Of a stretch of 64,000 bases of DNA, positions 4,107 through 30,525 are shown in pieces; within the stretch, counting starts at the first letter, position 1, and each line of letters opens with the position of its first letter. The notes beneath the pieces are model-generated. The model saw only the letters and a list, made by a program, of their open reading frames with translations, was not told the origin of the DNA and did no database searches. The DNA lies in contig CAVOPW010000022.1 of the NCBI GenBank assembly GCA_963698225.1, forward strand, positions 26,244 through 90,243. The letters run 5' to 3'. The stretch comes from an uncultured bacterium (GTDB lineage: Bacteria > Zixibacteria > MSB-5A5 > CAIYYT01). A program made the position numbers and the translations under genes.

Positions 4107-7100
4107 GTGAAATTTCCACGTCTCATTGCGATTCTTGTACTCTGTCTGGCGCTGATTGGGAGCAAGTCCTACGCAGCCGGTGGTGAGTACCCCTGGAGCG
4201 ATTCATTGCGGGCCAAGACGGCACTCGATGGACCATCACTTCAGCAGCTGTTGAGTACATTCGGTTATTCGATTAATGTGGCCACCGATGAGATCGGTGT
4301 TTCAGCCTTTAAACCACAATTATATGCCACCCAAGCCGAGATCACGATCAAGTATCGTGGTTCTGCCTCGAGATCGCAGGTCGGCTGGTATCCGAAAGGT
4401 GTACCGGCAAGCAGATCGATGCTGTTCGCCGGGGATGCGCCGGCTGGTACAGTAGTGACTGTGCCGACCCTGGCCGATTCGGTCGGATTCTATATCGGTC
4501 CGACACTTTATGATGACATCTGGTATAGCCAGACGAGTCTCAATTGGGACGGATTTGATCACGCCAAGGTATTTTCCGCCGGTGCGGTCGGTCACTATGT
4601 GATCGCGTTTGAAGACTTAGCGGATGGCGGCGATCAGGACTTTGAAGACGTAATCATTGATTTGCGATTTGTCGATCCTGACGCGTTGACGCTGTCGTTT
4701 GTCGGACAGACGAACTACCTTTTCTGTACTGAACAGAATATCTGCTTCGATGTGAAGGGCAATGGCGGATTTGGCAATCTGACGCTGCAGAAGAAGGTGG
4801 GTAACACTTTCACGACAGTGGCTACCGGGCCGGCACCGCTTAACTATCAGTCGTGCTTCCTGCCGTGGCCGATCGATTCGACGCACCGGTTCATTTTCAG
4901 GATTACCGACGAGGCGAGCGTCAGCATCATCGATACTTTCGAAGTGCGCGTGGAATTCCGGACGAATCCGGAGTTGACGTTAACTGACGATTATATTGAC
5001 ACGACGATCTGCGTACTTGATTCGATTTGTTTGGACGTTGCGACAGCGTTCGATTGGGACAACGATCAGCTGCAGTTTACGCTATTTCAAAGCCCGCCGG
5101 CGAATATCGATACGCTGACCGGCGAGGTGTGTTTCCTGCCGCTGGCGCTGGATTCGGCGATGTACCAATTTATCATTGTAGCGTATGACTCCTGCTGTAA
5201 GTCGTTCGGATTTCCGGGCGCCGACCCGCGGGAGTTGTTGCCTTGTCCGCGCGACACATTAACGGTAATCGTCAAGTACAGACAGCGTCCGGTTATTACT
5301 ACGATTCCGGACACGTCGATTACGCTTTGCAAGAACGCGCCGACCGAGCTGTGCTTCCCGATTACGGCCAGTGTCGGAGAGAATCCGGTCCCGGTAATTC
5401 AAGAGTGTGGGCCAGGATCGATCAGCAATGGACAGCTTTGCTTCAATGCGCTGTCTTCCGGGACATATACATTCTGTTTTGCTGCTGCGGATGACTGCGG
5501 CGGTTTTGTGCGCGATACGGTCAAATACACGGTTTTGATAGATGATGTCGCGCCGATTGCAAATGCCGGGCGCGATTCGACACTTACACTTTGTGCGCCG
5601 CGGCCAATTTGCTGGCCGGCAGGATGCTCGAGCCCAACCGGCGATCTCGCCACATGCGAATTAGTATTGGGACCGGGAACATTTGATGGTACGCATATCT
5701 GCTTCACGCCGACTGCAGGAATAGCCTATCAATTCGTGCTGCGGGCGAGCGACGGCTGCGGCAAATCTTGATTACGACACGTCGATCGTAACGGTTACGC
5801 TTCTGAATCCGCCGGTGGCATTGGTTCGCGACACGACGGTTACATTCTGTGTCGCACAACAGGTTTGTATTCCGGCGTCGTGCACCGATCCGGACGGCGA
5901 CCTGACGTCATGCCAGTTGATCGGCGGCCCGGGCACATATAATGGAAGTAACATCTGTTTCACACCGGACACTACCGGAACATACAGATTCATTGTTAGA
6001 GCAACCGATGCATGCGGAGCGACCGATTTAGACACCGGATTCGCGGTGGTTACGCTTAACCGACGCCCGGATATTCAAGTGGGCGGCGGCAGTTACACTC
6101 TTTGCGAACCGGGACTGATTTGTGTTCCGATCAGCGCAACGGATCCTGACGGAAATCCGCTGACCTATACGACGACGATGGGGACGATCAGCGGCAATAC
6201 GGTTTGTATCAACTCAGGCCCATCGGGATCGCGGGTGTACAATTTCAATGTTGTCGCCCGGGACGCCTGCGGCGCTGCTGATACGGCGCTTTACACCGTC
6301 AATGTCAGGGTGAACATGGTGCCGATTCTGACGGTGCCCTCGCCGACGCCACAGAAGCTGTGCGCTGCAACGCAGTTGTGCTTCAATGTGACGACGGTGG
6401 ATACGATTATTACGAAGTTGACTTATGCTTTATTGTCGGGTCCGGGAACGATTAATCCGACGACCGGCCAGGTGTGTTTCACACCGACGGCAGATGGGAC
6501 ATTCAATTGGAGCGTTCTGGTATCCGATAGCTGCGGCAAAGCTGACACCGGTTTCGTGAGTTGGAACGTCGACTTTGTCGATGCGCCGACTGCAGTGATT
6601 GCGGCGCCGGATGGCGATACCGCGGTATGCGTTGGCACGGAACTGACCAATATCTGCGCCAATATCACCTACACGAATGCACCGAATACTACGATTACGG
6701 CGACGCCCACCAATGCAAGCGTGGACTACACATTTACCTACGCAAACGGTGCGGGGACGCTTTGCTTTGATCCGCTGCTTGATCAAAGCCGGACGTATAC
6801 ATTTGAGTTTATCCGTGCCAACGAGTGCGGTGTCCGGGTTTCGACTTTCTGGGACTATACGGTTAGATATGACGAATGCGATTCGGCCTGTATTGTCCTG
6901 GAAATCGACAAGACCGAGTGCATAACGCTCGGTTCGCTGGTCACTATCGGGATAAACTACGAAGGACGGTTGCCGGTCGGCGGTTACGATATGCTGATCA
7001 AGTATGATGTGTCGGCATTCAGTTTTATCAACGCGAGTATCGGACCGGCAATCAGCGGTTGGGAATATTTCACCTATCGGCTTGGACCATTCGGAAACTG

Positions 7101-8370
7101 CAACGGTACGTGTCCGTCGGGATTGGTGCGGCTGGTTGCGATTGCCGATGCCAACAACGGCGCGAATCATCCGCCGGTGGCGCAGTTTACACCGACCGGT
7201 GTCATTGCGCGAATCACCTTCCGCGTGACAAGCAATAACACATTCGAAGGACAGGTGTTGCCGGTGGAGTTCTTCTGGATCGATTGCGGCGACAACGCCT
7301 TCTCGAGCCGGACCGGCGATACGCTGCTGGTGGACAAGATCATTTACGATTCGTACGATGTTTTGCTATGGGATGAAGACGACAATAGTCTCTTCCCCGA
7401 GTCGGGTCGATTTGACCACCTCGGCGTGCCGGATACTTGCATAGTCGGCGACAAGTTCTTACCGGAGCGCTGTGTGGAATTGCGCAATGGTTACATCTGC
7501 ATCATCGACAACGACTCAATTGACGCGCGCGGCGACATCAATCTCAATGGCATTGCCAATGAGATCGCCGACGCGGTATTGTATACGAATTACTTCTTGA
7601 AAGGCCTGGCGGCATTCACGATTTCGGTGCCAGCGCAGATTGCGGCGAGCGATATCAATGCCGACGGCAATACGTTGACGGTTGGCGATTTGGTATACCT
7701 GCTGCGGGTGCTGATCGGTGACGTTCAGCCGATTCCGAAGTTGACGCCGTTTGCCAATTCGGTGGCATTCAGCCTTGAAGAAGTAGAAGGCAAGACAAAG
7801 CTGTGGTCGAGCAGCAACGTTGATTTGGGCGGCGTGTATTTGCGCGCCAAGCTCAACGGCGCAGACGCGGCGACGGTCGTTGCCGAACTTGCGGCACAGA
7901 GCCTTGAGTTGGCCTACTTGGTTGATGGCGATGTGCTGAACGTGCTGATGTACTCCGATGAACTCGGGGCCAAGGTAGCTGCCGGTGAGCGGCAGATTCT
8001 GACCATCGGCGCGACAGTAACGATCGAGCATATCGAAGCCGCCGACTATGACGGCAACCAGTTGAAGTCCACCTTGGATAAGATGGTGCTTCCGGAAGAG
8101 TTTGCGCTGATTCAAAACTTCCCGAATCCGTTCAATCCGGAAACGACGATTTCGTTCTCACTGCCGAAAGCCTCGGAGTGGACGATGACGATTCTGAATA
8201 TCAGTGGACAGATTGTCAAACGCATGGCGGGCAGTTCGCCGGCGGGCGTGACCAGCGTTGTCTGGGATGCCACTGATCAAGCCGGAGCGACCGTTGCGAC
8301 CGGCGTATATTTGTATCGTCTTGACGCGGGCGAATTCAGTTCAACGCGCAAGATGGTTTTGATGAAGTAG
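4107..8370 (+). CDS. Large secreted Cys-rich repeat protein: DUF4114-like, Ig/cadherin-like repeats, cohesin-like, dockerin-like, T9SS-A/FlgD-type C-terminal domain (frameshift near 5769)
   Basis: GGAG RBS + GTG 4107, signal peptide; FEDLADGGDQDFED; repeats C..C.DPDGD..C...GPGT....ICFTP....F..RA.D.CG; RGDINLNG..IADAV / SDINADG..VGDLVYL; QNFPNPFNP..GVYLYRL..RKMVLMK. ORFs 3933-5771 and 5815-8370 join by removing one T at 5768-5769. Confidence 0.8.
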
Positions 8371-8429
8371 CACATTTCACGGACAGTCGCGAGTCGTATG
8401 CGGCGACTTGCGGCACCTTCGCAATGAGA

Positions 8430-8462
8430 AACGGCGTCCCGGCCACCACCGGGGCGCCGTTG
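8430..8462 (+). terminator. GC-rich hairpin downstream of large secreted protein, possible terminator
   Basis: AACGGCGTCCCGG-ccacca-CCGGGGCGCCGTT; weak U tract. Confidence 0.4.
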
Positions 8463-8470
8463 ACGTTTGT

Positions 8471-8970
8471 GCCCTCACCTCTCGCCCCTCTCCCCAAATG
8501 GGGAGAGGGGAAGTGCATCGGGCAGTAAACGGAATTTGTCGGGTGATTGGATGGGCGAAGGAGCAGGAATTTAAGGAAACCCACCGTACCGGTGGGGAAC
8601 AGAGCAGCAGCAGTTTCAGCCGATAACGCGGAATTGGGCAACGCCCTCACCTCCCGATGGTATCGGGATCGTGGACCTCGCCCTCTCCCAGAAGGGAGAC
8701 GGGAAAGCACAAACGGAGAGAGTCGGAACCCTCTGGGGAGATGCTCCTAAATTCCATGCAGCTTCGGGACGAGGGTTCCAACCTACTCGGCTGGATGGGA
8801 AACGTAGCAGAATTGAATGAAGCCCACCGTACAACGCCGTAGGAAAGGGCCTGACGGCTCGTTGCGATGTCAGGAGCGCACTGACTACAAGTTCTATAAG
8901 TGTCAGACAAGAATGTCTGACCTACCGGTATTCGTGATGGTGACGCGGGCGAGGGCACCTCGCCCCTACG
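8471..8970. repeat. Cluster of several REP-like palindromes between convergent genes
   Basis: GCCCTCACCTC..CCCTCTCCC..GGGAGA.GGG at 8471-8510 and 8644-8703; minus-strand GTAG-footed hairpins GTAGGTCAGACATTCTTGTCTGAC (8902-8925) and GTAGGGGCGAGGTGCCCTCGCCC (8947-8969); CCCACCGTAC occurs twice. Confidence 0.7.
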
Positions 8971-8980
8971 AAGGATAGTG

Positions 8981-10084
8981 TTACGCGACTTGGTGGATTT
9001 CGGTGAAGAGTTCGTCGGTCATGACGCCGTGGCCGAGGGCGAATTGCAGGACGTGCGACCAATAGGCGTTGCCTTCGATGAGAAGGGGGCCATCTTTGGT
9101 GATGGCGATATCCCAACCGAGACTGCGCAAAAAGGGCAGGCGCGATTGGGCCTCGAGTGCCAAAGCGGTGACTTCCTTGTGGAAGGGGAGAATCTCGCCG
9201 GCGATGGCGGCTTTGGTTTCGGGATGGTGGGTGTGATAGACAATTCCGGCATCAGTCAACTGGGCGCCGGTGCTTAAGACGCCGTTATCATCGAAGCACG
9301 CCGCCATGCCGGTGGTGCCCACGTTGTCGATGTGCTTGCCGGTGCGGGCGATCTTGAGCATGCGCATGAGAATCTGGATTTCGCCCTTGGTGGTGATATA
9401 AGTCACGACGCGCGCGGTTTGCGTGCAGTCTTTGGTGTAGCGATCGAGAAAAGGGTGCTGGATGATGCGTTCTTGGATCAGCCACGAATCGGGGCTGTGC
9501 TTGACGATACCGAAACTGGTGGCGGCGATTTTGTCGAAGAGTTCGCTGTAAGTGAATTCGCCCTCGTTGAATGACAATACGCGGTCATTGCCGATCTTGC
9601 GGCAGAGGCGGAGGCCTTCGCCACGGTCGGCGGACATGGCTTTGAGAACGAATTCGGTGAAGGCGCCCTCTTGAAGGAAGCGGGCGAAGTCTTGGCGATT
9701 ACGCAAAGGGCGATTGACGGCATCGTGACCGGAGTGCGGGTTGTAGAAACCATACTGACTGGGAACAGGAAGCCCCAGCGTGCCCATCAGGCGGTCGAAG
9801 ACCATTTTCTGCAAGACACCCTGGTCGAAGAGCTGATTGATGGTGCGGTGCATGATCCAAGCCTGTTCACGGCTCATATAGCGCGTCTTCTCCTGCCAGC
9901 TGATCTCCGGCCGAGACAATTCGTAGCGGTAGTATTCATGCGGCTGAAGTTCGTTCAGGCGCAACAGCCGTACGTTCTCGCTGATCTGGCGCAAGAGTCC
10001 GATGCGGGGTTGATGCGATAGGCGGCGGTTGCCTTCGAGGATCCGTCCGATAAAGCGACCAAGTGCAGCGGGGGAAACATTCAT
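8981..10084 (-). CDS. Sugar-transfer-associated ATP-grasp protein (ATPgrasp_ST-like)
   Basis: FVLK..ADRGEG, IQERIIQHP, TARVVT, GWDIAITKDGPLLIEGN. Confidence 0.8.
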   Translation of the reverse strand: MNVSPAALGRFIGRILEGNRRLSHQPRIGLLRQISENVRLLRLNELQPHEYYRYELSRPEISWQEKTRYMSREQAWIMHRTINQLFDQGVLQKMVFDRLMGTLGLPVPSQYGFYNPHSGHDAVNRPLRNRQDFARFLQEGAFTEFVLKAMSADRGEGLRLCRKIGNDRVLSFNEGEFTYSELFDKIAATSFGIVKHSPDSWLIQERIIQHPFLDRYTKDCTQTARVVTYITTKGEIQILMRMLKIARTGKHIDNVGTTGMAACFDDNGVLSTGAQLTDAGIVYHTHHPETKAAIAGEILPFHKEVTALALEAQSRLPFLRSLGWDIAITKDGPLLIEGNAYWSHVLQFALGHGVMTDELFTEIHQVA

Positions 10085-10141
10085 TCGTCCAAGTACTCCA
10101 TATTTATCCGATATTAACCGTCAATCGGCGATTGGCGCAAC

Positions 10142-10173: not shown

Positions 10174-10195
10174 GAGAGATCGATGTAAGAACGAA

Positions 10196-11008
10196 TTATT
10201 TTTTGCGGCGAAGATGGGCGCCGAGTCCAAGGAGACCCATGCCGAGGAGAACCATCGTTCCCGGTTCCGGCGTTATCGTAACATTGTGGGTTTCCTTGAC
10301 GAGGTCATTACCGCACTCGATGGTGGTGCGGAAGTTGACCGTCTGGAATTGGCGGATGTCAAAGTTCGCGCCAAAGGCACTAAGGTCGAAGCAATATTCC
10401 TTGATCCAAGTATCGCCGTTGGTCTGGCTCGGATTGGTCGGGACAATCGGGTTGGGTTCAAGCTCATCGTAGAACGTATAGGCGTTCTGTACTTGGCCAA
10501 GCTCGGTACCCTGATTGATTCTCCACGGGCCCATCGAGGCGACGATGGCGGCATTGTTGCCGAATCCACCGGGAACTGATGGAATGGTGAGGTAGCTGTC
10601 AACCTGATAGAGTTTGGAGACGCCACCGCGGGTAGCGATTGCGTAGGTGGCATCGTTGCCGTCAAATCCAAAGAACAAGTCGCCTTCGCGGTAGGTATAG
10701 TTCCAAACCGACGAATAGGCGCCGTACTGGTAGCTGGCGGTCAACGAGACATAGAACTTGTCATTGGCAGTGGCAAAATTAAGGCCTTCAGTATCGAAGC
10801 GCTCGCCACCAAGACCAGCCTGGCCCGGATTAGGCTGGAACGGGTTGGGCTGACCGGGATAACCCGGGAAGTCGATATCGGCGGTGTTATTGTGTTCATC
10901 GAACACGTTATCGCCGAAATCGTAGAAATTCCAGGTTACGGCATTGGCTGATGTGAAGGCAACAGCCACCATTGCGGTAACCAGAAGCTGTAATAGTGTT
11001 TTTTTCAT
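10196..11008 (-). CDS. PEP-CTERM sorting-domain surface protein
   Basis: GGAG RBS + MKKTLLQ signal peptide; C-terminus TPEPGTMVLLGMGLLGLGAHLRRKK. Confidence 0.9.
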   Translation of the reverse strand: MKKTLLQLLVTAMVAVAFTSANAVTWNFYDFGDNVFDEHNNTADIDFPGYPGQPNPFQPNPGQAGLGGERFDTEGLNFATANDKFYVSLTASYQYGAYSSVWNYTYREGDLFFGFDGNDATYAIATRGGVSKLYQVDSYLTIPSVPGGFGNNAAIVASMGPWRINQGTELGQVQNAYTFYDELEPNPIVPTNPSQTNGDTWIKEYCFDLSAFGANFDIRQFQTVNFRTTIECGNDLVKETHNVTITPEPGTMVLLGMGLLGLGAHLRRKK

Positions 11009-11052
11009 CGATCTCCTCCAAGAGTACATAATTCAAACCAAATATTGCAATA

Positions 11053-11068
11053 TGCAAACCGCGTGCCA
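11053..11068 (-). promoter_or_regulatory. sigma54 (-24/-12) promoter of the PEP-CTERM gene
   Basis: Minus strand TGGCAC-GCGGT-TTGCA, exact consensus. Confidence 0.85.
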
Positions 11069-11168
11069 ACACTGGAGGCCATTGCAGCCGCGTAAGTCAT
11101 TTCAATGCAATGTCTTGTGCTTGTAGATACTCTGTTTCATTTTAGAGTTTGGGGAACGCCTCCCAAAG

Positions 11169-11185
11169 TGTTCGAGATATCGACA
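11169..11185. promoter_or_regulatory. Putative enhancer-binding-protein site (TGT-N11-ACA)
   Basis: TGT-TCGAGATATCG-ACA about 100 bp upstream of the sigma54 site. Confidence 0.55.
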
Positions 11186-11270
11186 ATTCTGTCGTCGACT
11201 CTGGCGCAACTTGTCGTAAGCTATTGATATGTAATGGTATATGATGAATTGCAAAACGTCGGTGCGGTAA

Positions 11271-11303
11271 ACAAAAAGACCCTCGCGAGCGAGGGTCTTT
11301 TGT
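11271..11303 (-). terminator. Rho-independent terminator after the cohesin-like gene
   Basis: ACAAAAAGACCCTCGC-ga-GCGAGGGTCTTTTGT. Confidence 0.85.
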
Positions 11304-11328
11304 TTAGACGTAATGATATACGAAACAA

Positions 11329-11892
11329 TTACTTACAGGGAAGCGCCTTGCCGTCAGCGCCAGTTTTGAGAACCGAAAATGCCGGTTCGACGTTCTGGGC
11401 TTCAGGGGTTACGCCATAAAGCGTATTCGAGGGGGCGATGAAGGTCGTGTCGACCAGGACATTGCACCCGTTGATGGCGCTTTTGGCATCGGCGGTGAAA
11501 TAGAGAGTCGCCAGTTTCCCTTTGCCTTCGGCAAGCGGGGGTTTGGACCCGTCGAGCGTCGCAAAGAGACCCACCAGGACCTGCTGGAGGGAATCGAGCG
11601 GACGGACCGATTTTACGGCGAAGTAGTCGGTTCTGGGGGTCCAAGAAACCGAATCGTAACGCATGCGGAAACCATTGCCGCGAACGAGCAACGGGAAAGC
11701 CAGAGCCGTTAACTGCTGGTCGTTTTCCCAGTTCAGGTCGACGGCAAAGGTATTGCCCTTGACCTGACGGATCGCGACATCGGCTTTGTCGACACGGCCG
11801 AACGAATCCTTTGGTTTTCCCTGGGCGACCAGCGCCGCTGCTGCTACCAGAATCAATAGCGCGGTGAGTTTCCAGGCGATAGCTTTGTTCAT
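11329..11892 (-). CDS. Secreted stand-alone cohesin-like beta-sandwich protein
   Basis: Signal peptide; F.V.L...ND..L.A..FPL......DSVS....R.........PLAEGKGKLATLYFT..VDTTF pattern resembles cohesin-like domains. Confidence 0.5.
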   Translation of the reverse strand: MNKAIAWKLTALLILVAAAALVAQGKPKDSFGRVDKADVAIRQVKGNTFAVDLNWENDQQLTALAFPLLVRGNGFRMRYDSVSWTPRTDYFAVKSVRPLDSLQQVLVGLFATLDGSKPPLAEGKGKLATLYFTADAKSAINGCNVLVDTTFIAPSNTLYGVTPEAQNVEPAFSVLKTGADGKALPCK

Positions 11893-11918
11893 CAATATCC
11901 TCCCTGTAGTTTGGACAA

Positions 11919-13424
11919 TTAACTCATTTCGATTTTTTGGACTTCAGCCTCAACAGACGGTCTTACACCGGAAGTGGGGTATTGTTTCAGGAATTCCTGA
12001 AAGGTCTCCAGTGCTTTGGCGTCATTCTTAAGGTCATATCGATAAATATAGCCAATCTTGTAAAGAGCTTCCGCAGCCTGCGGAGTTTTCGGGTATTGTT
12101 TGATCACGGATTCAAATTGGCGGATGGCATCCTCGAAGCGATTGTTGCGCTGCAAGAAGGTGCCGAGATAACTGGCGGCCTGCAGGCCGATACGCCGATT
12201 GAGGTTGTTCTCGGCAAGTTTACGAATTTCCTGTTCCGAGCGGCGGAGCCATTCCTGTTCGAGGCCGGGTTGGCCAATCTTGCGGAAGTATTCAGGGAGA
12301 TAGGCGAGCACTTCCAAAGCCTGGACGCTGGTTGGAAACTCGTTCAGCAGGGCGACGTATTCCTGGCGGGCGCGCTCATTATTGTTCTCGCTCTCAAAGC
12401 TGCGTGCCTTGAGCATCTGAGCTTCGGCCTGGATATTGGCAAGTTGGGGAAAACGCTGGCGAAGAGCGTCCAGGTGATTACGGCCCTCCTGGAAGCGTTC
12501 GTTGCTAAAGGAAATCGTGGCGAGCTTGATGTATGCCGTGGCAATGGCAAGAGAATCCTGGCCGTCGATGAGAATCTGGTTGTAGATGCGAATTGCCTCG
12601 TCGCTGCGGTTGAGGCGAGTGAGATAGAGGTCGGCCATCATTGATCGGGCGGGGTCAAACTGCCTGCCGGTCGAATCGACAACGGTAGCGAGCAGATTTA
12701 CAGCCGTCTGATACTCTCCGGTGGCGCTGTACATTTCCGCCAGGAGGCGCGTTGCCATCATGGTCATCGGGACTTTGGGAAAACTATCGACGATGCCTTC
12801 ATAGTAGTCGATGGCCCAGCGCGCGCGCTTCAGCGCTTCTTCGCGTTCATTGGCGTCGGCAAAGTGCTGGGCGATCTTCTTGGGCAATTCCATGACATTT
12901 GAATTGGGAAGGACGCCGCGGATGACCGGCGGGTAATACTCTTTGAGCAACTGCAGGTAGAGTTGTTCGGCATCAGTCCAACGACCTTGCTGTTCAGCGA
13001 TGTTGCCGGCGGCAAATAGCGCATCGAAGCGATGCTGTTTCAGCATGACCGGCGAGTTGATGATGTATTCAAGGACACTTTTGGCGCTGTCGATTGACTC
13101 CGCGCTCAGCAGGAGTGCGGATGCCGACAGCAGCGCTTTGCCTGCGAGATTAGAAGCGTCGGCTTCGGGCACCGACATGGTTTGCAGCGAAGAGAGGTGC
13201 GAGAAATTTTCCTTGAAGCGGTTGAACACCTGCATATAGGAGTTAACAAGCAGATAGTAGTCATCGCGGGTCCGCAGTTCTGGTTTGACGGAATAGTTGT
13301 CGACAAGCTTTTCGGCTTCGAAGTAAGCCTTTTCGACCTGATAGCGTTTTTCTTCGATCTCGTAGCCTGAACAGCCGAGGGCCAGACAGAGGATCAGGCA
13401 AAGAGCAGTTCCGATTTTAGTCAT
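11919..13424 (-). CDS. TPR-repeat lipoprotein (BamD/CpoB-like repeats)
   Basis: Lipobox ALG-C; many TPRs ending YP/FP (QYPKTPQAAEALYKIG). Confidence 0.8.
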   Translation of the reverse strand: MTKIGTALCLILCLALGCSGYEIEEKRYQVEKAYFEAEKLVDNYSVKPELRTRDDYYLLVNSYMQVFNRFKENFSHLSSLQTMSVPEADASNLAGKALLSASALLLSAESIDSAKSVLEYIINSPVMLKQHRFDALFAAGNIAEQQGRWTDAEQLYLQLLKEYYPPVIRGVLPNSNVMELPKKIAQHFADANEREEALKRARWAIDYYEGIVDSFPKVPMTMMATRLLAEMYSATGEYQTAVNLLATVVDSTGRQFDPARSMMADLYLTRLNRSDEAIRIYNQILIDGQDSLAIATAYIKLATISFSNERFQEGRNHLDALRQRFPQLANIQAEAQMLKARSFESENNNERARQEYVALLNEFPTSVQALEVLAYLPEYFRKIGQPGLEQEWLRRSEQEIRKLAENNLNRRIGLQAASYLGTFLQRNNRFEDAIRQFESVIKQYPKTPQAAEALYKIGYIYRYDLKNDAKALETFQEFLKQYPTSGVRPSVEAEVQKIEMS

Positions 13425-20759: not shown

Positions 20760-20768
20760 CCATGCCTC

Positions 20769-24129: not shown

Positions 24130-24186
24130 TGGATATACCTTAAGTGTTGCTGTAGGATGGCTGTGGTGGCAGCCATCCTTTTTTTC

Positions 24187-24216
24187 TTGACAATATTTGT
24201 GCGGTGCACAATATTG
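24187..24216 (+). promoter_or_regulatory. Promoter with overlapping PhaR-type operator
   Basis: TTGACA at 24187; imperfect palindrome CAATATTTGTGC-ggt-GCACAATATTG containing TGCGGTGCACAA. Confidence 0.6.
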
Positions 24217-24240
24217 CATGCAGAGGTTACTCGTGGCGCA

Positions 24241-24804
24241 ATGAAGACAATTAAACGATATCCCAATCGACTTCTGTACGATACGACCATTAGCCGATTC
24301 GTTACCGGGCCGGACTTACGCCTGTACATCCGGCGGGATGTAGCTTTTCAGATAGTCGATAGTCGTTCCGGAGAGGATGTGACGGTACCGGTGTTGGGAC
24401 AGTTGTTTGTTGACGAAATTACGGCCAAGAACAATAAGAGGTCAATCATCGAAACGTTGCGGGGCTTCATCGCCCTGGGAGGAGAATTCAAAATGGATAT
24501 CCTGAAAAAAACCGTGCTGGCGTCGATCGGTGTGTTTGAAATCACCAAGAGCAAGGCGGAAGAAATTGTCGACACGCTGATCAAGGAAGGGGAGATTGCC
24601 AAGACGAAACGTTCGGAAGCGATCCTGGAATTGCTCGACAAAGCCGAGAGCTCGACGAAGGATCTGAAGGAAAGGATTTCCAAGGATGTCGAGATAACCA
24701 TTGAAAACCTCAAGGTTGCCAGGAAGAAGGATCTGGAGGAACTGAGCCGCAAGGTTGACGATCTGGCCGAGCAAGTGCGGAAGATTGCGGACAGGCTGAC
24801 GTAA
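24241..24804 (+). CDS. PhaR-type DNA-binding domain fused to phasin-like domain
   Basis: IKRYPNRLLYDT..SRFVT..(F)QIVDSRSGEDVT (PHB_acc_N); MDILKKTVLASIG...KAEEIVDTLIKEGEI..ARKKDLEELSRKVDDL (phasin family). Confidence 0.8.
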   Translation: MKTIKRYPNRLLYDTTISRFVTGPDLRLYIRRDVAFQIVDSRSGEDVTVPVLGQLFVDEITAKNNKRSIIETLRGFIALGGEFKMDILKKTVLASIGVFEITKSKAEEIVDTLIKEGEIAKTKRSEAILELLDKAESSTKDLKERISKDVEITIENLKVARKKDLEELSRKVDDLAEQVRKIADRLT

Positions 24805-24979
24805 CCGATCACTGAACAGAAGTTAGTCAACCGCGTCAGGAGAAGGTGGCATTAGATAGGCATGTATCGCCATAGCGATAATTCACAGTGGCTAAAAACA
24901 GGGGAGAGGCTTATATTGTCATAGTGGGAGTGGAGGATTCGGAGTCCGGGGTGGGATTCCGTGTGAGGTGGTTGGTTCT

Positions 24980-27900
24980 ATGCGGCTTGCGAAAACAATT
25001 ATTACCTGCTGTTGTCTCCTTTCGGTTCTGACCTCATCAGTAAGTGCAATCAGTTACAGTTCAAAGGGAAAACAGCCTGGGCAAAGTCAGGATACAAGGC
25101 GTGTTATAGTCAAGATTCGCAATTTGGCGAACAATTCAAAAAGCGGGAATGCGACGGCGCACGAGTCAGCACTTGGCGAGTTACTTGGCAAATCTAATCC
25201 AATATCAGTCAGTCAATTTGCCGAGGCTCGTCCGAACCAAGCGACCGGCGAGAAATTTGCGAGAATTCGGGTCATCGAGTTCGCGACGGCCACGGAGGCA
25301 AGTGACTTTATAGCCAATTCGGCCGGATCCGACGTGATTGAGTATGCCGAACCGGACTATGTGCTGGAGCTCTTCGAAATCCCCAATGACGGACTTTTCC
25401 GTTATCAGTGGAATCTACGAAATATAGGCCAGGAGTACTACTCGGTTCTGCGATTTGACGGCAACAACAATGATATCCAGACCATGTTGACCGGCAATGA
25501 GGGTGCTGATATCCGAAGCACCGATGCTCCGGAAGCCAGCAACAGCGCCGAGGTGATTGTGGCGATCATCGATACGGGTCTCGATCGATACCATCCTGAT
25601 CTTAATGGCAGTGTGTGGCAGAACATGGATGAGATTCCGGCAAACAACGTCGACGACGATCACAATGGCTATGTGGATGATACCTGGGGCTGGGATTATT
25701 CCGCCAATGAAGCGTCGATCCCGATCTACTCCGACAATGACCCGGACGATACCTATGGCCACGGCACGCATTGTGCGGGCATCATTGCGGCGCAAACCAA
25801 CAACAATATCGGGATTGCGGGGGTGTCCAAGCACGCTAAATTGATGCCTTTGAAGATCTACCCGACGATGTCAGTTTCTCTGGCGGCCAGGGCGGTGATC
25901 TATGCTGCCGATAACGGAGCCGATGTTATCAGCATGTCGTGGGGGATGTCCTACGAATCGCTGTTGTTGCGCGATGCTCTGCTGTATGCGCGGGAAAAAG
26001 GAGCGGTCCTATGTGCCGGAAGCGGTAACTCGGGAGCCGAAGACCAGTTCTTTCCTGCAGCTTTTGAGTTTGTAATCGCTGTTGGGGCCACTGACAGCCG
26101 GGATAAGGTTGCGGGATTTTCTACATTTGGCGCGCATCTCGACCTCTGTGCCCCCGGAGAATCGATCCTGTCTTTGCGCGCAAGAAACACCGATATGTAC
26201 GCGGCATCACCATCAAACGAACCGCTGGTGCACGTGGTCGAGGATTGGTTTTATGAAGCATCCGGCACCAGCATGGCTTGTCCGCATGTTGCCGGAGTAA
26301 TAGCGGAAATGCGTGCGCAGTCGCCGGGGCTGCCTTCCGACAGTATCAAACGAATTTTGAATGCTACGAGCGATGATCTGGTTGATCCGCAGGGGGAGGG
26401 GGCGAGTCTTGTCGGCTGGGACCGGTTCAGCGGTTTTGGCCGAGTGAACCTGGAGCGCGCACTGGAAAGCACACCGACGACGCAGGCCCGCATCGAGCAG
26501 CCCCAGGAGGGATCAATTCTTTCCGGCAGAGTCCAGATCGTCGGCAGGGCATTTGATGAGGGCATCCTGGACTATGCGCTGGATTACCGGCGGGTCGGTG
26601 ATTCTGAATGGAGACTGATTCGACAAAGCGCGGCGACTGTAACCTCCGGCGTGCTCAGCACGTGGGACACGGGTCAATTGTCCGGGCTCTATGAGATTCG
26701 TTTGCGCGTCGGTGCTTCGAATGAGTCACGCAGGACTGTGTTGTTAGTGCCCGAGGCCATTGTCGAGATTGCTCTGCCGGAGGGCAGTAACGTTTCGTCA
26801 GGCGCCGTCGAGCTGGGCCTGAACTCAATCTGCCCGAACTTCGAGAGGACGGTGATCGATTATCGTCCGGCCGCAAGCAGCGAGGATTGGACGACGATTG
26901 CCGAGTTGACCGCGCCGGCAGTGGGCGAGACAAGTGTCTTCTGGGATCTCATGGCGGTGCCGAATGGCGAATATATCGTGCGGGCCCGCGTCTTCAGTTC
27001 CTCCGGGTTGGAGGACTCATTCGAGGATTCACTCACTGTGGTTTCGCCATTCTCCGGGAACCACGGTTGGCGCGCCGAAATCGGTGCGAACGCAGCGATA
27101 ATGGCAAATTATGGTGATTTTGACGGCGATGGACGCAACGAGATTGTGGTGGGGACCGACTCGGGTCTCGCGTTTTTTGATCTTGAAGGAAATCGCCAAT
27201 ACGCGGGAATGCCGGATCTGCCGGAAGAGAATTTCCTGGTAGTCCCGGTTGTCTGCTCGATCGACTCTGACTCCGTCGACGATTTGGCGGTAATTGCAGA
27301 AACTTCGAATCTGATCTACGGACTGTCTTCGAGCGGGAGGATTTTTCGTGATGTCGTCTACAACTCGCCGCGAACGTCGCTGTACGGTTCGCTAAGCGAG
27401 GCGTATTTCCCGTTGTTGTTTGCGCGGGATCTCGACCACGACGGTTTCGACGAGATCATTTACAAATCGGGCGGCAGTTCCACGGGACCCAGTCAGATCA
27501 AAATTGTGAGTCCACATCCGGCTTCAGGATCGTGCTTCCCGCTGGATCTCGAAGGGGGCATGGTTCAGGCTGCGGACCTGGATCGCGACTCGCTGGATGA
27601 GTTGTACATCATGGACCGGAACGGCTTGTTGAAGAAGATTAATCTCTGCGGCGAAACGCAACGGACGATGAATTTTGTTTTTGGCGATTATCACCTAACA
27701 CCATCCGGATTGACAGCGGCGGATGCCGACGGCGACGGTGACCACGACTTAGTGCTGATGGGATATCTATGGCGACCGGATCGGAACTACGGGTACTTCC
27801 TGATTGTGATGGACTCGGATCTCCGGGTGCTAAAAAAAGAGGCACGCAGTCTCGGGATACCATCATTCCTGGATCCGCCGATGGCGGTTTATGGCGACAT

Positions 27901-28729
27901 CGATGGAGACGGACAGCCGGAATCGGTGGTCTCATTTCATGACGGCAATTACGGATATCTGTTTGCCTGGAATGCTGATGGTTCACCGGCCGTTGACGAA
28001 CAGCCGATGAACGGTTTGTTGGCCGCGATCGCGCATCCGGGGATTGCCGCGATGCCGTTGTTAGTAGATGTAAATGGCCGCGGTGGGGCCGATGCAGTTG
28101 TGGCGGCGGGCCGCGATTTGTTCGGCGTGTTTCCGCGCCAGAGGGTAGAAGCTTTCAGCGCTTCCGGGGAACCCGTGGCAGACTGGCCGCTATTCGTGGC
28201 GGCGCATACGCAGGATTATCCTACCAAGGCAAATGTGCCAACATTTGGTGACATTGACGGCGACGGTTACACCGACATGATCATGATCACTCCGGCAAAT
28301 GAGCTGGTCTACACCTCTCTCGCAGGCATGGAGTGGAATGCGAGCAGTTCTCCTTGCCCGATGTGGCGGTACAATCGCCGACTCAACAACATTGCACCGA
28401 TACATCACGATGTTGCCACGGATATTGCATCGGACGGTGACCCACTGCCGAGAGAATACATGACAGCACAGAACTTTCCCAACCCGTTCAATTCGGCAAC
28501 GTCAATTGAGTATGCGATTCCCCGGGCGGGTGATGTCGAGATTAGTGTTTTCAATTTGTCGGGACAGAGAATTCGTAAAATTCTCGTTCCCGGACAAGCG
28601 GCGGGAAAGCACCGAATCCGCTGGGAGGCAGTGAGTCAAGCAGGGGTGATCCTGCCGTCAGGTGTGTACTTCTACCAGGTTGAAAGCAACAACGAGAAGG
28701 CGACCGGCAAGATGGTTCTAGTCAAGTAG
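24980..28729 (+). CDS. Secreted S8 subtilase with Ig-like and FG-GAP repeats and T9SS-A/FlgD-type C-terminal domain
   Basis: IDTG, HGTHCAG, GSGN, GTSMACP; GDFDGDG/GDIDGDG repeats; QNFPNPFN..GVYFYQV..GKMVLVK. Confidence 0.9.
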   Translation: MRLAKTIITCCCLLSVLTSSVSAISYSSKGKQPGQSQDTRRVIVKIRNLANNSKSGNATAHESALGELLGKSNPISVSQFAEARPNQATGEKFARIRVIEFATATEASDFIANSAGSDVIEYAEPDYVLELFEIPNDGLFRYQWNLRNIGQEYYSVLRFDGNNNDIQTMLTGNEGADIRSTDAPEASNSAEVIVAIIDTGLDRYHPDLNGSVWQNMDEIPANNVDDDHNGYVDDTWGWDYSANEASIPIYSDNDPDDTYGHGTHCAGIIAAQTNNNIGIAGVSKHAKLMPLKIYPTMSVSLAARAVIYAADNGADVISMSWGMSYESLLLRDALLYAREKGAVLCAGSGNSGAEDQFFPAAFEFVIAVGATDSRDKVAGFSTFGAHLDLCAPGESILSLRARNTDMYAASPSNEPLVHVVEDWFYEASGTSMACPHVAGVIAEMRAQSPGLPSDSIKRILNATSDDLVDPQGEGASLVGWDRFSGFGRVNLERALESTPTTQARIEQPQEGSILSGRVQIVGRAFDEGILDYALDYRRVGDSEWRLIRQSAATVTSGVLSTWDTGQLSGLYEIRLRVGASNESRRTVLLVPEAIVEIALPEGSNVSSGAVELGLNSICPNFERTVIDYRPAASSEDWTTIAELTAPAVGETSVFWDLMAVPNGEYIVRARVFSSSGLEDSFEDSLTVVSPFSGNHGWRAEIGANAAIMANYGDFDGDGRNEIVVGTDSGLAFFDLEGNRQYAGMPDLPEENFLVVPVVCSIDSDSVDDLAVIAETSNLIYGLSSSGRIFRDVVYNSPRTSLYGSLSEAYFPLLFARDLDHDGFDEIIYKSGGSSTGPSQIKIVSPHPASGSCFPLDLEGGMVQAADLDRDSLDELYIMDRNGLLKKINLCGETQRTMNFVFGDYHLTPSGLTAADADGDGDHDLVLMGYLWRPDRNYGYFLIVMDSDLRVLKKEARSLGIPSFLDPPMAVYGDIDGDGQPESVVSFHDGNYGYLFAWNADGSPAVDEQPMNGLLAAIAHPGIAAMPLLVDVNGRGGADAVVAAGRDLFGVFPRQRVEAFSASGEPVADWPLFVAAHTQDYPTKANVPTFGDIDGDGYTDMIMITPANELVYTSLAGMEWNASSSPCPMWRYNRRLNNIAPIHHDVATDIASDGDPLPREYMTAQNFPNPFNSATSIEYAIPRAGDVEISVFNLSGQRIRKILVPGQAAGKHRIRWEAVSQAGVILPSGVYFYQVESNNEKATGKMVLVK

Positions 28730-28760
28730 CGGGGCTTCAAGAAGACAGTCGCAAAAAGGA

Positions 28761-28789
28761 AACAGGGACTTCAATTGAAGTCCCTGTTC
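28761..28789. terminator. Hairpin between convergent S8 protease genes, probable bidirectional terminator
   Basis: AACAGGGACTTC-aatt-GAAGTCCCTGTT. Confidence 0.75.
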
Positions 28790-28812
28790 GTTTATCGAGA
28801 CAATCGCTGCGT

Positions 28813-30525
28813 CTATGAGCAGAGAGTCGGCGTTGGTCCGCCATTGAAGATGAAACTGATGATAAACACGGCGTCGGAAATCGTGATTGTGCCGGTGCAA
28901 TCGCCGTCTGCCGCAGCGAGCGGCGACGGAGCAGTTCCGGACGCAAAAATGTAGTTGATGATAAACACGGCGTCCGAGATCGTGATGGTGCCGCTGCCAT
29001 CGGCGTCGCCGGGCATGTAGCTCGGCGGTGCGAAGACGTAACGAAGCGCATTCCAGGTATTGATGATACCCCAGCCATAGTTATTGTTCGGCGTTGCTGC
29101 GTTATTTGCGGTGAGCATCAGCGCTTCACGAACCTGCATGTTGGTCCACGTCGGATTTGCACCCCAGACGATGGCGGCAGCGCCGGCAGTCAACGGGCAA
29201 GAGAATGAAGTGCCGCTGGAGAATCCGTAGGAGGCATCTCCTGCGGAACTGGCTACGCTGGCATTTGATCCCAGCGCACAGACCTCAGGCTTGATGCGGC
29301 CATCGGCGGTCGGTCCGCGCGAGGAAAAGCTGACGATAGTGCCGGAGGAATTTACCGCACCGACAGTAATGATGCTGTCGGCGTCCGCCGGTGCACCAAG
29401 CGACTGCGGCGCCGAGCCGGAGTTGCCGGCCGAATTGACGACCAAGATGCCGTAGGATGCGGCGATGTCGGCGGCGATGGTCGATACGCAGAAATCACCA
29501 TTGTAGTTGATCGTAGCATACCAGTCTGTGTAACCGAGCGAAGAAGAGATAATGTCGGCACCAATTGAGTCGGACCATTCGACGGCAGCCGTCCAGTTGT
29601 ATTCTTCCTGAACGGTCTCACTCCTCACGTCTTCGGTCTTGCAGAGAATGAACTGGGCAAGATAAGCCGGACCGTAATGAACGCCGGGATTGGCGCCGCC
29701 GCAGGTGGACCAGGTGCTGGTACCGTGGCTCCAGGCGCTGGCATCGTCGCCGACCTCATTAGAGACATTGCCATCGTTGAAAACAAAGTCGTGTTCAGCG
29801 ATGACGCGGCCGCTGAGGTAAGCCTGCGCGAACGAATTGTGACTCTTACGGAATCCAGTGTCAAAGATCGAGATCAGCATACCCTGACCGGCATAGCCGG
29901 AGTCGTGACAGATCGGGACATTGATTTGTGTCAGCTGAGCGAGCGAGGACCCATAGGAGAGACCGGTTGGCTGCAGAGCCTGTTGGTCGCCCTGCGGAGC
30001 CGTCTTTTCGTAGGTAACCTCTTCGATCGGACGTTTAAAGGTCGCCGTCGGTTGCACGCGTGCCACGAATTCCATTCCGGCAATCATACCGACACGGTTG
30101 AGGTCGATCTCGATTGCGGCAGAATTCAGCCACTTGGAAGTGCTAAGAACCGTCGCACCCATTGACTGCAGCTGGTTTACATAGCGGGCATTGACCGGCA
30201 GATCGGTAAAACGGATTTCCGCGACGCCGTGCTTCTCGCGCCGGGCTTTGGCCCGCGCGGACATACCCGCGTCTGCTGCCAAAGCAGCAGCCTGGAATTC
30301 AGACTTGTTGAAAATACCTTTATCCGTGAAAAAGACCCAGATCTTGACTTTGCCGTCAGCCTGGTTCTTTGCCAGGTAGTCTACGGCGCGGTCGGAAATG
30401 GGGATTTCGCTCTTTGCCCGAAAGAAGCTCGGATCCTGAAAATCGGGACGCTGTTTTGCAGCAGTCATTCCGACTACGAAGAGCAGTGCTATCAGCGCCC
30501 CGGTGCCAAAAACTTTCATGTTCAC
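28813..30525 (-). CDS. Secreted S8 serine protease with C-terminal dockerin-like domain
   Basis: FDTG, HGT, NSAGN, GTSFSCP; duplicated GDADGSGTITISDAVFIINYIF / ADGDCTGTITISDAVFIISFIF. Confidence 0.9.
   Translation of the reverse strand: MNMKVFGTGALIALLFVVGMTAAKQRPDFQDPSFFRAKSEIPISDRAVDYLAKNQADGKVKIWVFFTDKGIFNKSEFQAAALAADAGMSARAKARREKHGVAEIRFTDLPVNARYVNQLQSMGATVLSTSKWLNSAAIEIDLNRVGMIAGMEFVARVQPTATFKRPIEEVTYEKTAPQGDQQALQPTGLSYGSSLAQLTQINVPICHDSGYAGQGMLISIFDTGFRKSHNSFAQAYLSGRVIAEHDFVFNDGNVSNEVGDDASAWSHGTSTWSTCGGANPGVHYGPAYLAQFILCKTEDVRSETVQEEYNWTAAVEWSDSIGADIISSSLGYTDWYATINYNGDFCVSTIAADIAASYGILVVNSAGNSGSAPQSLGAPADADSIITVGAVNSSGTIVSFSSRGPTADGRIKPEVCALGSNASVASSAGDASYGFSSGTSFSCPLTAGAAAIVWGANPTWTNMQVREALMLTANNAATPNNNYGWGIINTWNALRYVFAPPSYMPGDADGSGTITISDAVFIINYIFASGTAPSPLAAADGDCTGTITISDAVFIISFIFNGGPTPTLCS

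Follow-up and report, generated by a model that had tools for sequence, protein, structure and literature searches.

Cohesin and dockerin modules in an uncultured Zixibacteria genome: a putative non-cellulosomal display system with peptidase-rich cargo

Three genes lying within 26.4 kb (positions 4107–30525) of a 64,000-nucleotide stretch of DNA, here called the window, raise the question whether they encode a cohesin-dockerin complex dedicated to protein degradation at the cell surface, as a sequence-only reading had proposed. The host is an uncultured sediment bacterium of the Zixibacteria, with a genome of 3.55 Mb that is 89% complete. All three features, a 1420-aa surface protein, a 187-aa ORF and an S8 protease, are real, and taken as a whole they are best explained, with confidence somewhat above even, as part of a non-cellulosomal cohesin-dockerin system that spans the genome and is typical of Zixibacteria. 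Its most likely role is display, in which exoproteins with a Sec signal and a dockerin tag, in many cases peptidases, would dock on T9SS-anchored single-cohesin proteins. The features are as follows.

4107–5768, + strand: N-terminal part of the 1420-aa protein in the first frame, with signal peptide, DUF4114 (35.8 bits) and Cys-rich Ig-like repeats; the start at 4107 gives 1420 codons
5760–5771, + strand: frame break, where a base that a near-identical contig lacks produces TGA at 5769–5771
5770–6879, + strand: further Ig-like repeats (Big_9/PKD-like; Big_9 40.1 bits) of the same protein in the second frame
6880–7518, + strand: cohesin belonging to the C-terminal cassette and carrying a ~70-residue insertion
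7528–7725, + strand: cassette-type dockerin, two unequal Ca-loop/helix repeats visible in the sequence
7759–8079, + strand: beta-sandwich 'X' domain (model strands at residues 324–430)
8095–8370, + strand: T9SS type A C-terminal sorting domain (CTD), FlgD_ig-like
10196–11029, − strand: PEP-CTERM sorting-domain protein, directly downstream of the small cohesin
11329–11895, − strand: 187-aa secreted single-cohesin protein (P0001), with signal peptide, invariant Cys144 and C-terminal Cys-Lys
11919–13424, − strand: TPR lipoprotein (lipobox LALGC), directly upstream of the small cohesin
24968–28729, + strand: another S8 protease, which bears FG-GAP repeats and a T9SS type A sorting domain of its own and is oriented convergently to the dockerin protease
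28813–30525, − strand: S8 serine protease that has a signal peptide, the Asp/His/Ser motifs and a C-terminal dockerin but no T9SS tail

The surface protein is spread over ORFs in different frames (3933/4107–5771 and 5770–8370). The Cys-rich Ig-like repeat pattern runs on across the break, orthologues are unbroken at 1420 aa (P0045, 92% identity), and a contig of run X2, at least 99% alike, has one base fewer at 5762 (depth 4.1); the two ORFs are therefore one gene with a one-base indel in this assembly, and 4107–8367 less one base makes exactly 1420 codons. ORF boundaries come from a mechanical call and the assembly contains indels, which counts against the display reading. Pfam matches comprise DUF4114, Big_9, FlgD_ig and Por_Secre_tail, and TIGR04183 scores 33.5 bits against a cut-off of 23, whereas the matches to Cohesin (18.1 bits against 24.1) and Dockerin_1 (17.2 against 22.9) stay below their cut-offs. 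In an AlphaFold2 model of the cassette (pLDDT 85), residues 31–243 adopt a cohesin fold that superposes on 5nrm_A with Z 16.0 and rmsd 1.9 Å over 138 of 141 residues; ranks 1–46 are all cohesins, and Foldseek likewise returns cohesin hits. The cohesin had been placed at ~6890–7350; the fold was right, but with its insertion the domain is longer. Also upheld were the dockerin-like motif, with helices at model residues 259–309, and the T9SS-A/FlgD tail, which matches the PorU CTD (6za2, Z 11.2). The dockerin matches dockerin 3ul4_B weakly (E 0.41), and each of its loops exceeds those of the C-terminal type described below by one residue. The 'X' domain is possibly a second, divergent cohesin-like domain, to which several weak leads point: a cohesin dyad as top Foldseek match, cohesin clusters as nearest Atlas clusters (score 0.84, a lead only) and a weak match of profile positions 521–629 to the Archaeoglobus fulgidus cohesin 2xdh (E 0.13).

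The 187-aa ORF gave zero hits in Pfam and NCBIfam. Its model (pLDDT 85, pTM 0.75) has solely cohesins as top Foldseek matches (E 3e-7), and when 48,161 chains were searched independently, ranks 1–20 were all cohesins (Z 14.1–9.8), the first non-cohesin fold appearing at Z 9.5. A secreted single cohesin at 11329 was thus correctly called, and the top-ranked, cohesin-only structure matches of both proteins (Z 16.0 for the cassette cohesin; 14.1, against 9.5 for the first other fold, for the small one) rule out generic Ig/CBM beta-sandwiches. Several observations on the small cohesin nevertheless count against display. Both window cohesins fall below the Pfam sequence threshold, the small-cohesin family profile found no cohesin among PDB sequences, no profile-profile relationship links it to the cassette cohesin, and in 16 of 16 loci it has the TPR lipoprotein and the PEP-CTERM protein as conserved neighbours, rather than any protein with a dockerin. 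This operon may supply a different partner for the small cohesin. The low or absent sequence-model signal and the conserved neighbours also lend some weight to a rather unlikely alternative, that the dockerins are orphans: Ca-stabilised terminal modules that bind non-cohesins (polysaccharide, LPS or other proteins) or just stabilise exoproteins, the cohesin folds serving as spacers or binders of other ligands and the small cohesin, TPR lipoprotein and PEP-CTERM protein belonging to an exosortase-type surface or floc system. The PEP-CTERM protein aligns over its full length, weakly and below the cut-off, with the model of the flocculation protein PepA (E 6.9e-6). Against the orphan alternative, a P0001-like cohesin shares a T9SS-tailed protein (C16:36977-39691) with a second, Pfam-recognised cohesin (43.2 bits) and a dockerin-X-CTD end.

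The S8 protease (Peptidase_S8, 142.5 bits) carries its dockerin at residues 505–558 (window 28852–29013), scoring 27.1 bits in the whole protein and 30.8 in the tail, above the Pfam cut-off of 22.9. Among the 120 homologues listed, 78 have PF00404 and none a T9SS CTD, and the architecture is kept down to 45% identity; dockerin and lack of a sorting tail had both been read correctly. At a density of 95 dockerin ORFs per 3.55 Mb, the 26.4-kb span should contain 0.7 of them, so that a dockerin protease here is unremarkable. Two or more cohesin ORFs are less expected (Poisson P 0.007), and the two window cohesin genes are conserved neighbours. Housekeeping genes separate the protease gene from them, a further point against display. 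The three genes do not form a dedicated local cluster or complex; they belong to a genome-wide and phylum-wide system.

The dockerin set was defined by a Dockerin_1 census, with 96 matches, 84 of them above the cut-off, in the 95 ORFs. The C-terminal dockerins have four conserved Cys, a CxxC tail and an internal duplication. Across 72 paralogues the recognition-helix positions are near-uniform in both repeats (I 62/58, S 66/64, I 68/63, N 49/48), consistent with a single cohesin specificity common to them and with dual-mode binding. Peptidase domains occur in 16 of the 95 ORFs (M1 x4, M14, M12, M28 x2, M43, M4, S8 x4, trypsin-like and C25); at least ten peptidase families are represented, and no other recognisable class of enzymes is as large. 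No GH catalytic domain was found in any of the 95. In the 89%-complete genome GH5 had no match above the cut-off and GH9 no match whatever, and the 46 window ORFs scanned contain no glycoside-hydrolase domain above threshold, in agreement with the sequence-only reading. The proposed proteolytic character holds in so far as the dockerin set is peptidase-rich and GH-free. It fits only part of the cargo, because the dockerin is the sole recognisable domain in 45 of 95 ORFs (also a point against display) and many of the remainder encode binding or repeat proteins. T9SS-tailed proteins too carry M6, S8 and C25 peptidases, so that an abundance of peptidases marks the secretome as a whole and is not confined to the dockerin set.

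The predicted diderm envelope is supported, together with a T9SS, by PorU (704.6 bits) and SprA (above cut-off); a PorZ-like protein is also present. The dockerin lies at most 23 residues from the C-terminus in 86 of 95 ORFs, and in 43 it ends exactly 12 residues before it. A CTD is absent from 90 of the 95, and present in all five with an internal dockerin. This fixed, sorting-signal-like position and the distribution of CTDs are what could be expected if dockerin proteins, having a Sec signal and no outer-membrane sorting tail, bound the cohesins of CTD proteins in the periplasm and, folded and still bound, passed with them through the T9SS translocon. The T9SS transports folded cargo, SprA and PorU are at hand, and the four Cys point to an oxidising periplasm as the place of folding. 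Such joint export is nonetheless improbable, the least likely of the alternatives considered here: cellulosomal dockerins are likewise usually C-terminal, which makes position weak proof, no precedent for T9SS hitch-hiking was found, and three secretins in the genome make a T2SS-type route available. By these secretins dockerin proteins may also leave the cell independently of the T9SS, which in turn counts against display.

Cohesins are far fewer, ~17 ORFs combining 12 Pfam matches with hits of the cassette and P0001 HMMs. A T9SS CTD is present in nine and the full cassette in five, no protein has more than two cohesins, and two ~300-aa ORFs (L057, L134) consist of a cohesin and a C-terminal dockerin. 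The dockerin:cohesin ratio of ~95:17 speaks against display and for orphan dockerins, and implies that only a small fraction of the dockerins would be docked at once unless the anchors are very abundant. At E<=1e-3 the cassette is found in 1825 proteins, whose N-termini vary and include S8 and C25 peptidases. Cassette cohesin and dockerin are contiguous, nearly linker-free and jointly conserved, and the dockerin's unequal repeats, longer loops and low score suggest a separate specificity, comparable to the type I/type II pairs of cellulosomes. Together with the many unrelated passenger domains, this would suit a self-assembling lattice of anchors, where the cassette cohesin binds the cassette-type dockerin of its own molecule (a rigid stalk) or of a neighbour (a chain or lattice of T9SS cargo), and enzyme dockerins dock on other cohesins or none. 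We regard this as unlikely, a little more so than orphan dockerins: the single-chain model (pTM just 0.47) leaves the domain arrangement undefined, and full occupation of the cassette cohesins would leave ~86 C-terminal dockerins with ~8 other cohesins.

Among 81 sampled genomes of the phylum, 80 have dockerins and 79 cohesins, and the single dockerin-free genome is also cohesin-free. This co-occurrence argues against orphan dockerins, as do the fusion of both modules in one conserved cassette and in small cohesin-dockerin proteins, and the strong conservation among paralogues of helix positions that contact cohesin in known complexes. One genome with 61 dockerin and no Pfam cohesin matches favours the orphan reading over display.

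The preferred display reading starts from ~90 Sec-exported proteins per genome, the window S8 protease among them, that end in the stereotyped, duplicated, Cys-containing dockerin, and from a far smaller set with single cohesins (one with two), about half of them, including the 1420-aa protein, with a terminal cohesin-dockerin-X-CTD cassette. The T9SS would carry the cassette proteins out of the cell and their CTD would fix them to the outer membrane; their surface-near cohesin would then, with Ca, capture free exoproteins by the C-terminal dockerin. The predicted outcome is a cell coat in which peptidases mix with other enzymes and with binding proteins; anchors could be chained together by the small cohesin-dockerin adaptors and by the cassette-type dockerin, which is distinct.

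Both module folds are shared with the clostridial cellulosome (PDB 1ohz, 2ccl, 5nrm, 2b59), and in both systems enzyme dockerins are C-terminal and internally duplicated, some proteins, in the manner of adaptor scaffoldins, combine cohesin and dockerin, the dockerins seem to fall into two classes, and the anchor is surface-attached (here by prediction). The Zixibacteria host differs in being diderm, in an anchor that is a T9SS CTD and not SLH domains or sortase, in lacking a scaffoldin with many tandem cohesins and any CBM3 seen, in its dockerin proteins free of GH domains and genome without GH5 or GH9 found, and in the dockerin Cys and CxxC tail and the insertion of the cassette cohesin. Dockerins on predicted peptidases also occur in a rumen metagenome, where 12 of 47 non-CAZy functions of dockerin proteins are tied to protein catabolism (Bensoussan et al., 2017; PMC6487960). 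The rumen set stems mostly from Firmicutes cellulosome producers and is GH-dominated, whereas here peptidases lead and GHs are missing.

A literature search found no paper connecting Zixibacteria with dockerins; a comparable idea is already published for Cloacimonadota. There, Ca. Stygibacter has a putative cellulosome-like complex, from which a polypeptide-degrading surface complex is inferred (Williams et al., 2021; PMC8542988). It too is an uncultured FCB-group diderm, with C-terminal dockerins on signal-peptide S8 and C25 peptidases and a cohesin protein with a T9SS-type CTD (PMC8542988). In contrast to the present system, a single scaffoldin of 3755 aa there combines tandem cohesins with CBM2/CBM3, and GH18 and GH57 enzymes bear dockerins as well (PMC8542988); the Zixibacteria cohesins are in comparison single, spread across ~17 proteins, with a cohesin-dockerin-X-CTD cassette and no dockerin-bearing GH.

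The non-cellulosomal cohesins of A. fulgidus (2xdh) and Clostridium perfringens GH84C/GH33 (2w1n, 2o4e, 2vo8) resemble those described here in their use outside plant cell-wall degradation and in single modules per protein, and both window cohesins match 2xdh (Z 13.5–14.3). Such cohesins and dockerins were reportedly reviewed by Peer et al. in 2009. The present system differs from them in its 95 dockerin ORFs in one genome, phylum-wide occurrence, T9SS coupling and peptidase-rich cargo. Finally, T9SS type A display in Porphyromonas gingivalis (PorU 6za2; gingipain-type C25) shares the TIGR04183-type CTD, a PorU orthologue, and C25, S8 and M6 peptidases among CTD cargo. Recruitment of CTD-less proteins by cohesin-dockerin contacts was not found described for Bacteroidota T9SS among the papers listed in a literature search; in Zixibacteria such contacts may add a second layer to T9SS display.

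The three features that the sequence-only reading had joined into one cohesin-dockerin surface complex fall within 4107-30525 and are interspersed with unrelated housekeeping genes, coding for an ATP-grasp enzyme, MutS2, DnaG, a DUF5686 outer-membrane-type protein, a histidine kinase, a nitrilase-type hydrolase, a response regulator and a PHA regulator. The remainder of the window is made up of a flagellar cluster and other housekeeping genes. The genome assembly (3.55 Mb, 24 contigs, 89% complete; the window is on contig 22) contains indels, and ORF boundaries are mechanical calls on it. Source names on homologue records assign the organism to candidate division Zixibacteria / Zixiibacteriota. 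The features discussed here are:

4107-8370 (+), gene for a 1420-aa surface protein with a C-terminal cohesin-dockerin-X-T9SS CTD cassette
10196-13424 (-), three-gene unit of a TPR lipoprotein (lipobox LALGC), P0001 and a PEP-CTERM protein
11329-11895 (-), P0001, a 187-aa protein with a single predicted cohesin
24157-24804 (+), regulator of PHB/PHA accumulation that carries a phasin-like domain, adjoining the response regulator
24968-28729, second S8 protease, convergent with the dockerin protease, with FG-GAP repeats and a T9SS tail of its own
28813-30525 (-), S8 subtilase with a C-terminal dockerin
33259-48584 (+), flagellar cluster with FliK, FlgD, FlgE, FliL, FliM, FliR, FlhB, FlhA, FlhF, a MinD-like ATPase and a FliA-type sigma factor

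Flagellar cluster and T9SS coexist in this organism; the T9SS tails are of FlgD_ig type, and the true FlgD is encoded at 34900-35577. The regulator hints at polyhydroxyalkanoate storage. The idea that the three genes form a dedicated local complex did not hold. With 0.7 dockerin ORFs expected per 26 kb, the proximity of the protease is at chance level. The two cohesin genes, in contrast, are conserved neighbours (P ~0.007 for a pair of cohesin ORFs within this span).

The large gene is called as two ORFs in different frames (3933/4107..5771 and 5770..8370), and a Cys-rich Ig-like repeat pattern runs continuously over the break. A true two-gene arrangement was rejected on these repeats, on unbroken orthologues of 1420 aa (P0045, 92% identity across the searched region) and on a single contig from run X2 (at least 99% alike, depth 4.1), which has one base fewer at 5762. 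Less one base, 4107-8367 gives exactly 1420 codons. The stretch 4107-8370 is read as one gene with a 1-base indel, caused by an assembly error or a strain variant. In the roughly 12% of raw-read runs X21 and X22 that was covered, no read matched, which bears on neither cause. For expression, no RNA data set was listed over 5300-6300. An assembly error is favoured because the genes for FlgE and SprA are split likewise. The flagellar hook protein FlgE is called as two overlapping ORFs in different frames (36000-37292 and 37237-37917, +), the first with the rod/D1 domains and the second with the D2 and C-terminal rod domains, and the SprA gene on contig 21 is broken by a TAA; both cases suggest frequent single-base assembly errors in the source genome.

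Profile searches of the large protein matched DUF4114, Big_9, FlgD_ig, Por_Secre_tail and TIGR04183. Its proposed T9SS type A/FlgD-type tail was confirmed by TIGR04183 (33.5 bits, cut-off 23), by PF18962 on the tail alone (28.2 bits, cut-off 27) and by a match of the modelled CTD (model residues 436-526) to the PorU CTD at Z 11.2. The C-terminal 526 residues, modelled with AlphaFold2 from 37 homologues (pLDDT 85, pTM 0.47), resolve into four parts. Model residues 31-243 are predicted to adopt the nine-stranded jelly-roll fold of cohesins and superpose on type I cohesins with Z 16.0 and rmsd 1.9 A over 138 of 141 residues at 20% identity; cohesins alone take ranks 1-46 in the structural alignment, and Foldseek agrees. 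The modelled domain exceeds classical cohesins by about 70 residues and reaches 18.1 bits with PF00963 (E 0.0031, partial match 3-50/139), below the gathering score of 24.1.

Predicted helices at model residues 259-309 span the duplicated Ca-loop motif of the putative cassette dockerin. Its two Ca-loop-like repeats have the acidic residue at loop position 13, not 12, and it gives 17.2 bits with Dockerin_1 (cut-off 22.9) and a weak match to the PDB dockerin 3ul4_B (E 0.41). X, the beta-sandwich modelled at residues 324-430, has three leads, all weak: its Atlas neighbours (score 0.84), a match of its stretch of the profile to the A. fulgidus cohesin (E 0.13), and a top Foldseek match to a cohesin dyad. 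They suggest that X may be another, divergent cohesin-like domain. Searched more widely, the cassette region matches 1825 proteins at E<=1e-3, mostly named as T9SS or FlgD-Ig proteins of Zixibacteria, with diverse N-termini that include S8 and C25 peptidases.

P0001 has 42 homologues of 187-201 aa, all without assigned names. It has no match in Pfam or NCBIfam, and none to Pfam Cohesin even at E<=10. Its N-terminus is signal-peptide-like, and Cys144 and Cys187-Lys188 are invariant. The model from 40 homologues (pLDDT 85, pTM 0.75) has the same predicted nine-stranded cohesin fold. Foldseek returned 84 matches at E<=0.001, all cohesins among the matches listed, and an independent search of 48,161 PDB representatives placed cohesins at ranks 1-20 (Z 14.1 to 9.8; best alignment rmsd 2.8 A, 136 of 144 residues), with the first non-cohesin fold at Z 9.5. 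A generic Ig or CBM fold was thus rejected for both cohesin-like domains, and their assignment as cohesins in the sequence-only reading is upheld by the models.

All of the 16 related loci keep the TPR-cohesin-PEP-CTERM order, with identities as low as 52%; next to it comes the ATP-grasp gene in 10 and the gene for the 1420-aa protein in seven. The unit links a cohesin to an exosortase-type substrate. Several of the related MAG contigs (L136, L138-L140, L142-L146; near-identical or related) bear the submitter label 'uncultured Ignavibacteria', and protein records of the same families are assigned to Zixibacteria, which is probably an inconsistency of taxonomic labelling in public records. The constancy of the unit is compatible with an alternative in which the small cohesin serves its TPR/PEP-CTERM operon and the dockerins are orphans. 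Profile-profile comparison of the small-cohesin and cassette families found no relationship (probability 0.3), and a PDB sequence search with the former returned only a photolyase (E 0.087). On the other side, the genome's one further match to the P0001 family is the N-terminal domain in a T9SS-tailed protein of 905 aa (C16:36977-39691) that also carries a Pfam cohesin (43.2 bits) and a dockerin-X-CTD module; this architecture links the small cohesins to the cohesin-dockerin system, and the alternative is judged unlikely.

The dockerin protease is a full-length S8 subtilase (PF00082, 142.5 bits, profile 1-288/288) with FDTG, HGTS and SGTSFS, which are taken to be the Asp, His and Ser motifs of the family. 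Its terminal dockerin at 28852-29013, already recognized without database searches, scores 27.1 bits in the whole protein and 30.8 in the tail alone against a cut-off of 22.9 (profile 1-55/57), which places it in the type I family (PF00404); both of its repeats have Asp at loop positions 1, 3 and 12. No T9SS tail was found on this protein, again as first described. PF00404 is present in 78 and a CTD in none of the best 120 homologues listed, so that the S8-dockerin architecture is stable down to 45% identity; the same 120 give no sign of an interchange of dockerin and T9SS tail among orthologues. A complex prediction of the cassette cohesin (residues 28-248 of the family alignment) with the S8 dockerin, run without controls, gave 0.09 against a mark of 0.32 and neither supports nor opposes binding.

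Over the whole genome, the Dockerin_1 profile has 96 matches at E<=0.01, 84 of them above the cut-off, in 95 ORFs. The dockerin ends at most 23 residues from the C-terminus in 86 of these ORFs, and exactly 12 residues before it in 43. The 72 C-terminal dockerins that were aligned (from loci L041-L135) are highly stereotyped, with the consensus CGDADGxGxxxISDAVYLINYIFxGGPAP, a near-identical second repeat and a CxxC. Cys occupies four columns in 49-59 of the 72, namely before the first Ca loop (50), in the second loop (52) and in the terminal CxxC (49 and 59), and the CxxC tail is found in 40. A second subtype has CLCGDANG and ICLGDANG. Classical cellulosomal dockerins are not known to have such a Cys pattern. 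Helix positions that correspond to cohesin contacts in known type I complexes are nearly identical between both repeats and among paralogues. In sequence terms this points to one shared cohesin specificity, and a dual binding mode may be possible. With a profile of the 72 paralogues, PDB type I dockerins are matched at E values from 2e-8 to 1e-6. Its best match, in two stretches and ranked above cellulosomal dockerins, is 8x39_A / 8x3a_A, a 151-aa chain named 'Serine protease' (E 1.7e-8); the papers retrieved for these two entries were all unrelated.

A Pfam scan of all 95 dockerin ORFs (E<=1e-5) assigned peptidase domains to 16, namely M1 (four), M14, M12, M28 (two), M43, M4, S8 (four), trypsin-like and C25. 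Other enzymes are a lysyl oxidase, a PAD-type deiminase fragment, PhoD, CotH, a glucose/sorbosone dehydrogenase and a BNR propeller, and binding or repeat domains are numerous (Laminin_G_3, TSP_3, FG-GAP, SBBP, beta-helix, CHRD). In the cargo, peptidases and adhesin-like proteins predominate. At the same threshold none of the 95 has a GH catalytic domain, 45 of them having the dockerin as sole assigned domain. In the whole genome (89% complete) no GH5 match exceeds the cut-off and GH9 has no match at all. The description of the system as proteolytic rather than cellulolytic therefore stands for the recognizable enzymes and is overstated for the cargo set as a whole, half of which has no known domain.

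Pfam Cohesin gives 12 matches at E<=1, five above the cut-off (for example 43.2 and 40.4 bits); with HMMs built from the cassette and P0001, about 17 cohesin ORFs are found, a total that varies with HMM sensitivity. Five ORFs carry the full cassette, and nine cohesin ORFs overall have a T9SS tail. Two cohesins is the maximum per ORF in this genome; elsewhere in the phylum, some genomes have two or three in one ORF. The nearest thing to a 'scaffoldin locus' is the cluster at C16:34602-43112, where the genes for a He_PIG-cohesin-dockerin-CTD protein, a dockerin-X-CTD protein with two cohesins and a full-cassette protein adjoin one another and a short dockerin ORF. Two ORFs of about 300 aa consist of a cohesin and a C-terminal dockerin. 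About 44 ORFs bear a CTD; they include peptidases (M6, S8, C25) and a PorZ-like protein, with no GH among them. The T9SS machinery is represented by PorU (704.6 bits) and SprA, both over their cut-offs. The genome also has three secretins.

Among 81 sampled genomes of the phylum, dockerins occur in 80 (from 2 to at least 69 per genome, 69 being the largest number of candidates scored in any one) and cohesins in 79. G066 (94% complete) has matches to neither, and G071, with 61 dockerin matches, has none to Pfam Cohesin; these two are natural test cases for the dependence of dockerins on cohesins.

A functional cohesin-dockerin system is the most economical account of modules that are real, occur in large numbers and are conserved together. 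In its layout, unlike that of a cellulosome, single cohesins are spread over many proteins, about half of them T9SS cargo with the cohesin near the anchoring tail. A display model is favoured by a modest measure: T9SS-anchored single-cohesin proteins would capture Sec-exported exoproteins through their C-terminal dockerins, and the small proteins that join a cohesin to a dockerin would, along with the distinct dockerin of the cassette, enable chaining. Joining of anchors to one another through cassettes that hold both modules would instead yield a self-assembling anchor lattice. The divergence of the cassette dockerin is in keeping with this lattice, which is rated less probable than orphan dockerins. 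Rated lower again is a reading of the dockerin as a secretion and retention tag, by which about 90 exoproteins per genome would bind CTD cassette proteins in the periplasm, ride the T9SS translocon and stay surface-held, with the cassette-type dockerin knitting the anchors into a lattice. The disulfide-stapled C-terminal dockerin would here replace the T9SS tail. If true, the cohesin-dockerin pair would serve a diderm cell as a general means of sorting proteins, and T9SS would export pre-assembled hetero-complexes. Piggy-back export via T9SS, taken by itself, is the least probable of these readings.

In anoxic sediments, where Zixibacteria are commonly found, the breakdown of protein outside cells feeds carbon and nitrogen cycling. 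The display model, if true, would give them a docked-peptidase surface coat and explain how they keep enzymes and products near the cell. It would also be a large (~95 dockerins in a 3.5-Mb genome), phylum-wide, non-cellulolytic diderm system with a new cassette architecture, a Cys-stapled dockerin subtype and a T9SS anchor instead of SLH or sortase. Designers of enzyme complexes would gain new orthogonal binding pairs from it. For T9SS it raises the testable question of display, even export, of CTD-less proteins by docking onto CTD cargo.

Searches of open-licence PubMed Central and bioRxiv (subscription journals and supplementary files being outside their scope) found no paper that treats dockerins together with Zixibacteria or Zixiibacteriota, and the same two sources gave nothing related for Latescibacteria and dockerins. 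A cellulosome would call for a scaffoldin with several tandem cohesins and a cellulose-binding module and for dockerin-bearing GHs, cellulases above all. That identity was rejected: no ORF goes beyond two cohesins, no GH catalytic domain was assigned to any of the 95 dockerin ORFs, and domain scans of the window, dockerin and CTD-bearing ORFs contained no CBM family. The solved non-cellulosomal cohesins 2xdh and 2w1n are among the best structural matches. The parts consulted of a preprint on giant genes of Omnitrophota mention dockerin-type giant proteins and no comparable system. Peptidases with dockerins are noted in rumen metagenomes (PMC6487960), and for Cloacimonadota MAGs a cellulosome-like complex of dockerin-bearing S8 and C25 peptidases with a CTD-bearing scaffoldin has been proposed (PMC8542988).
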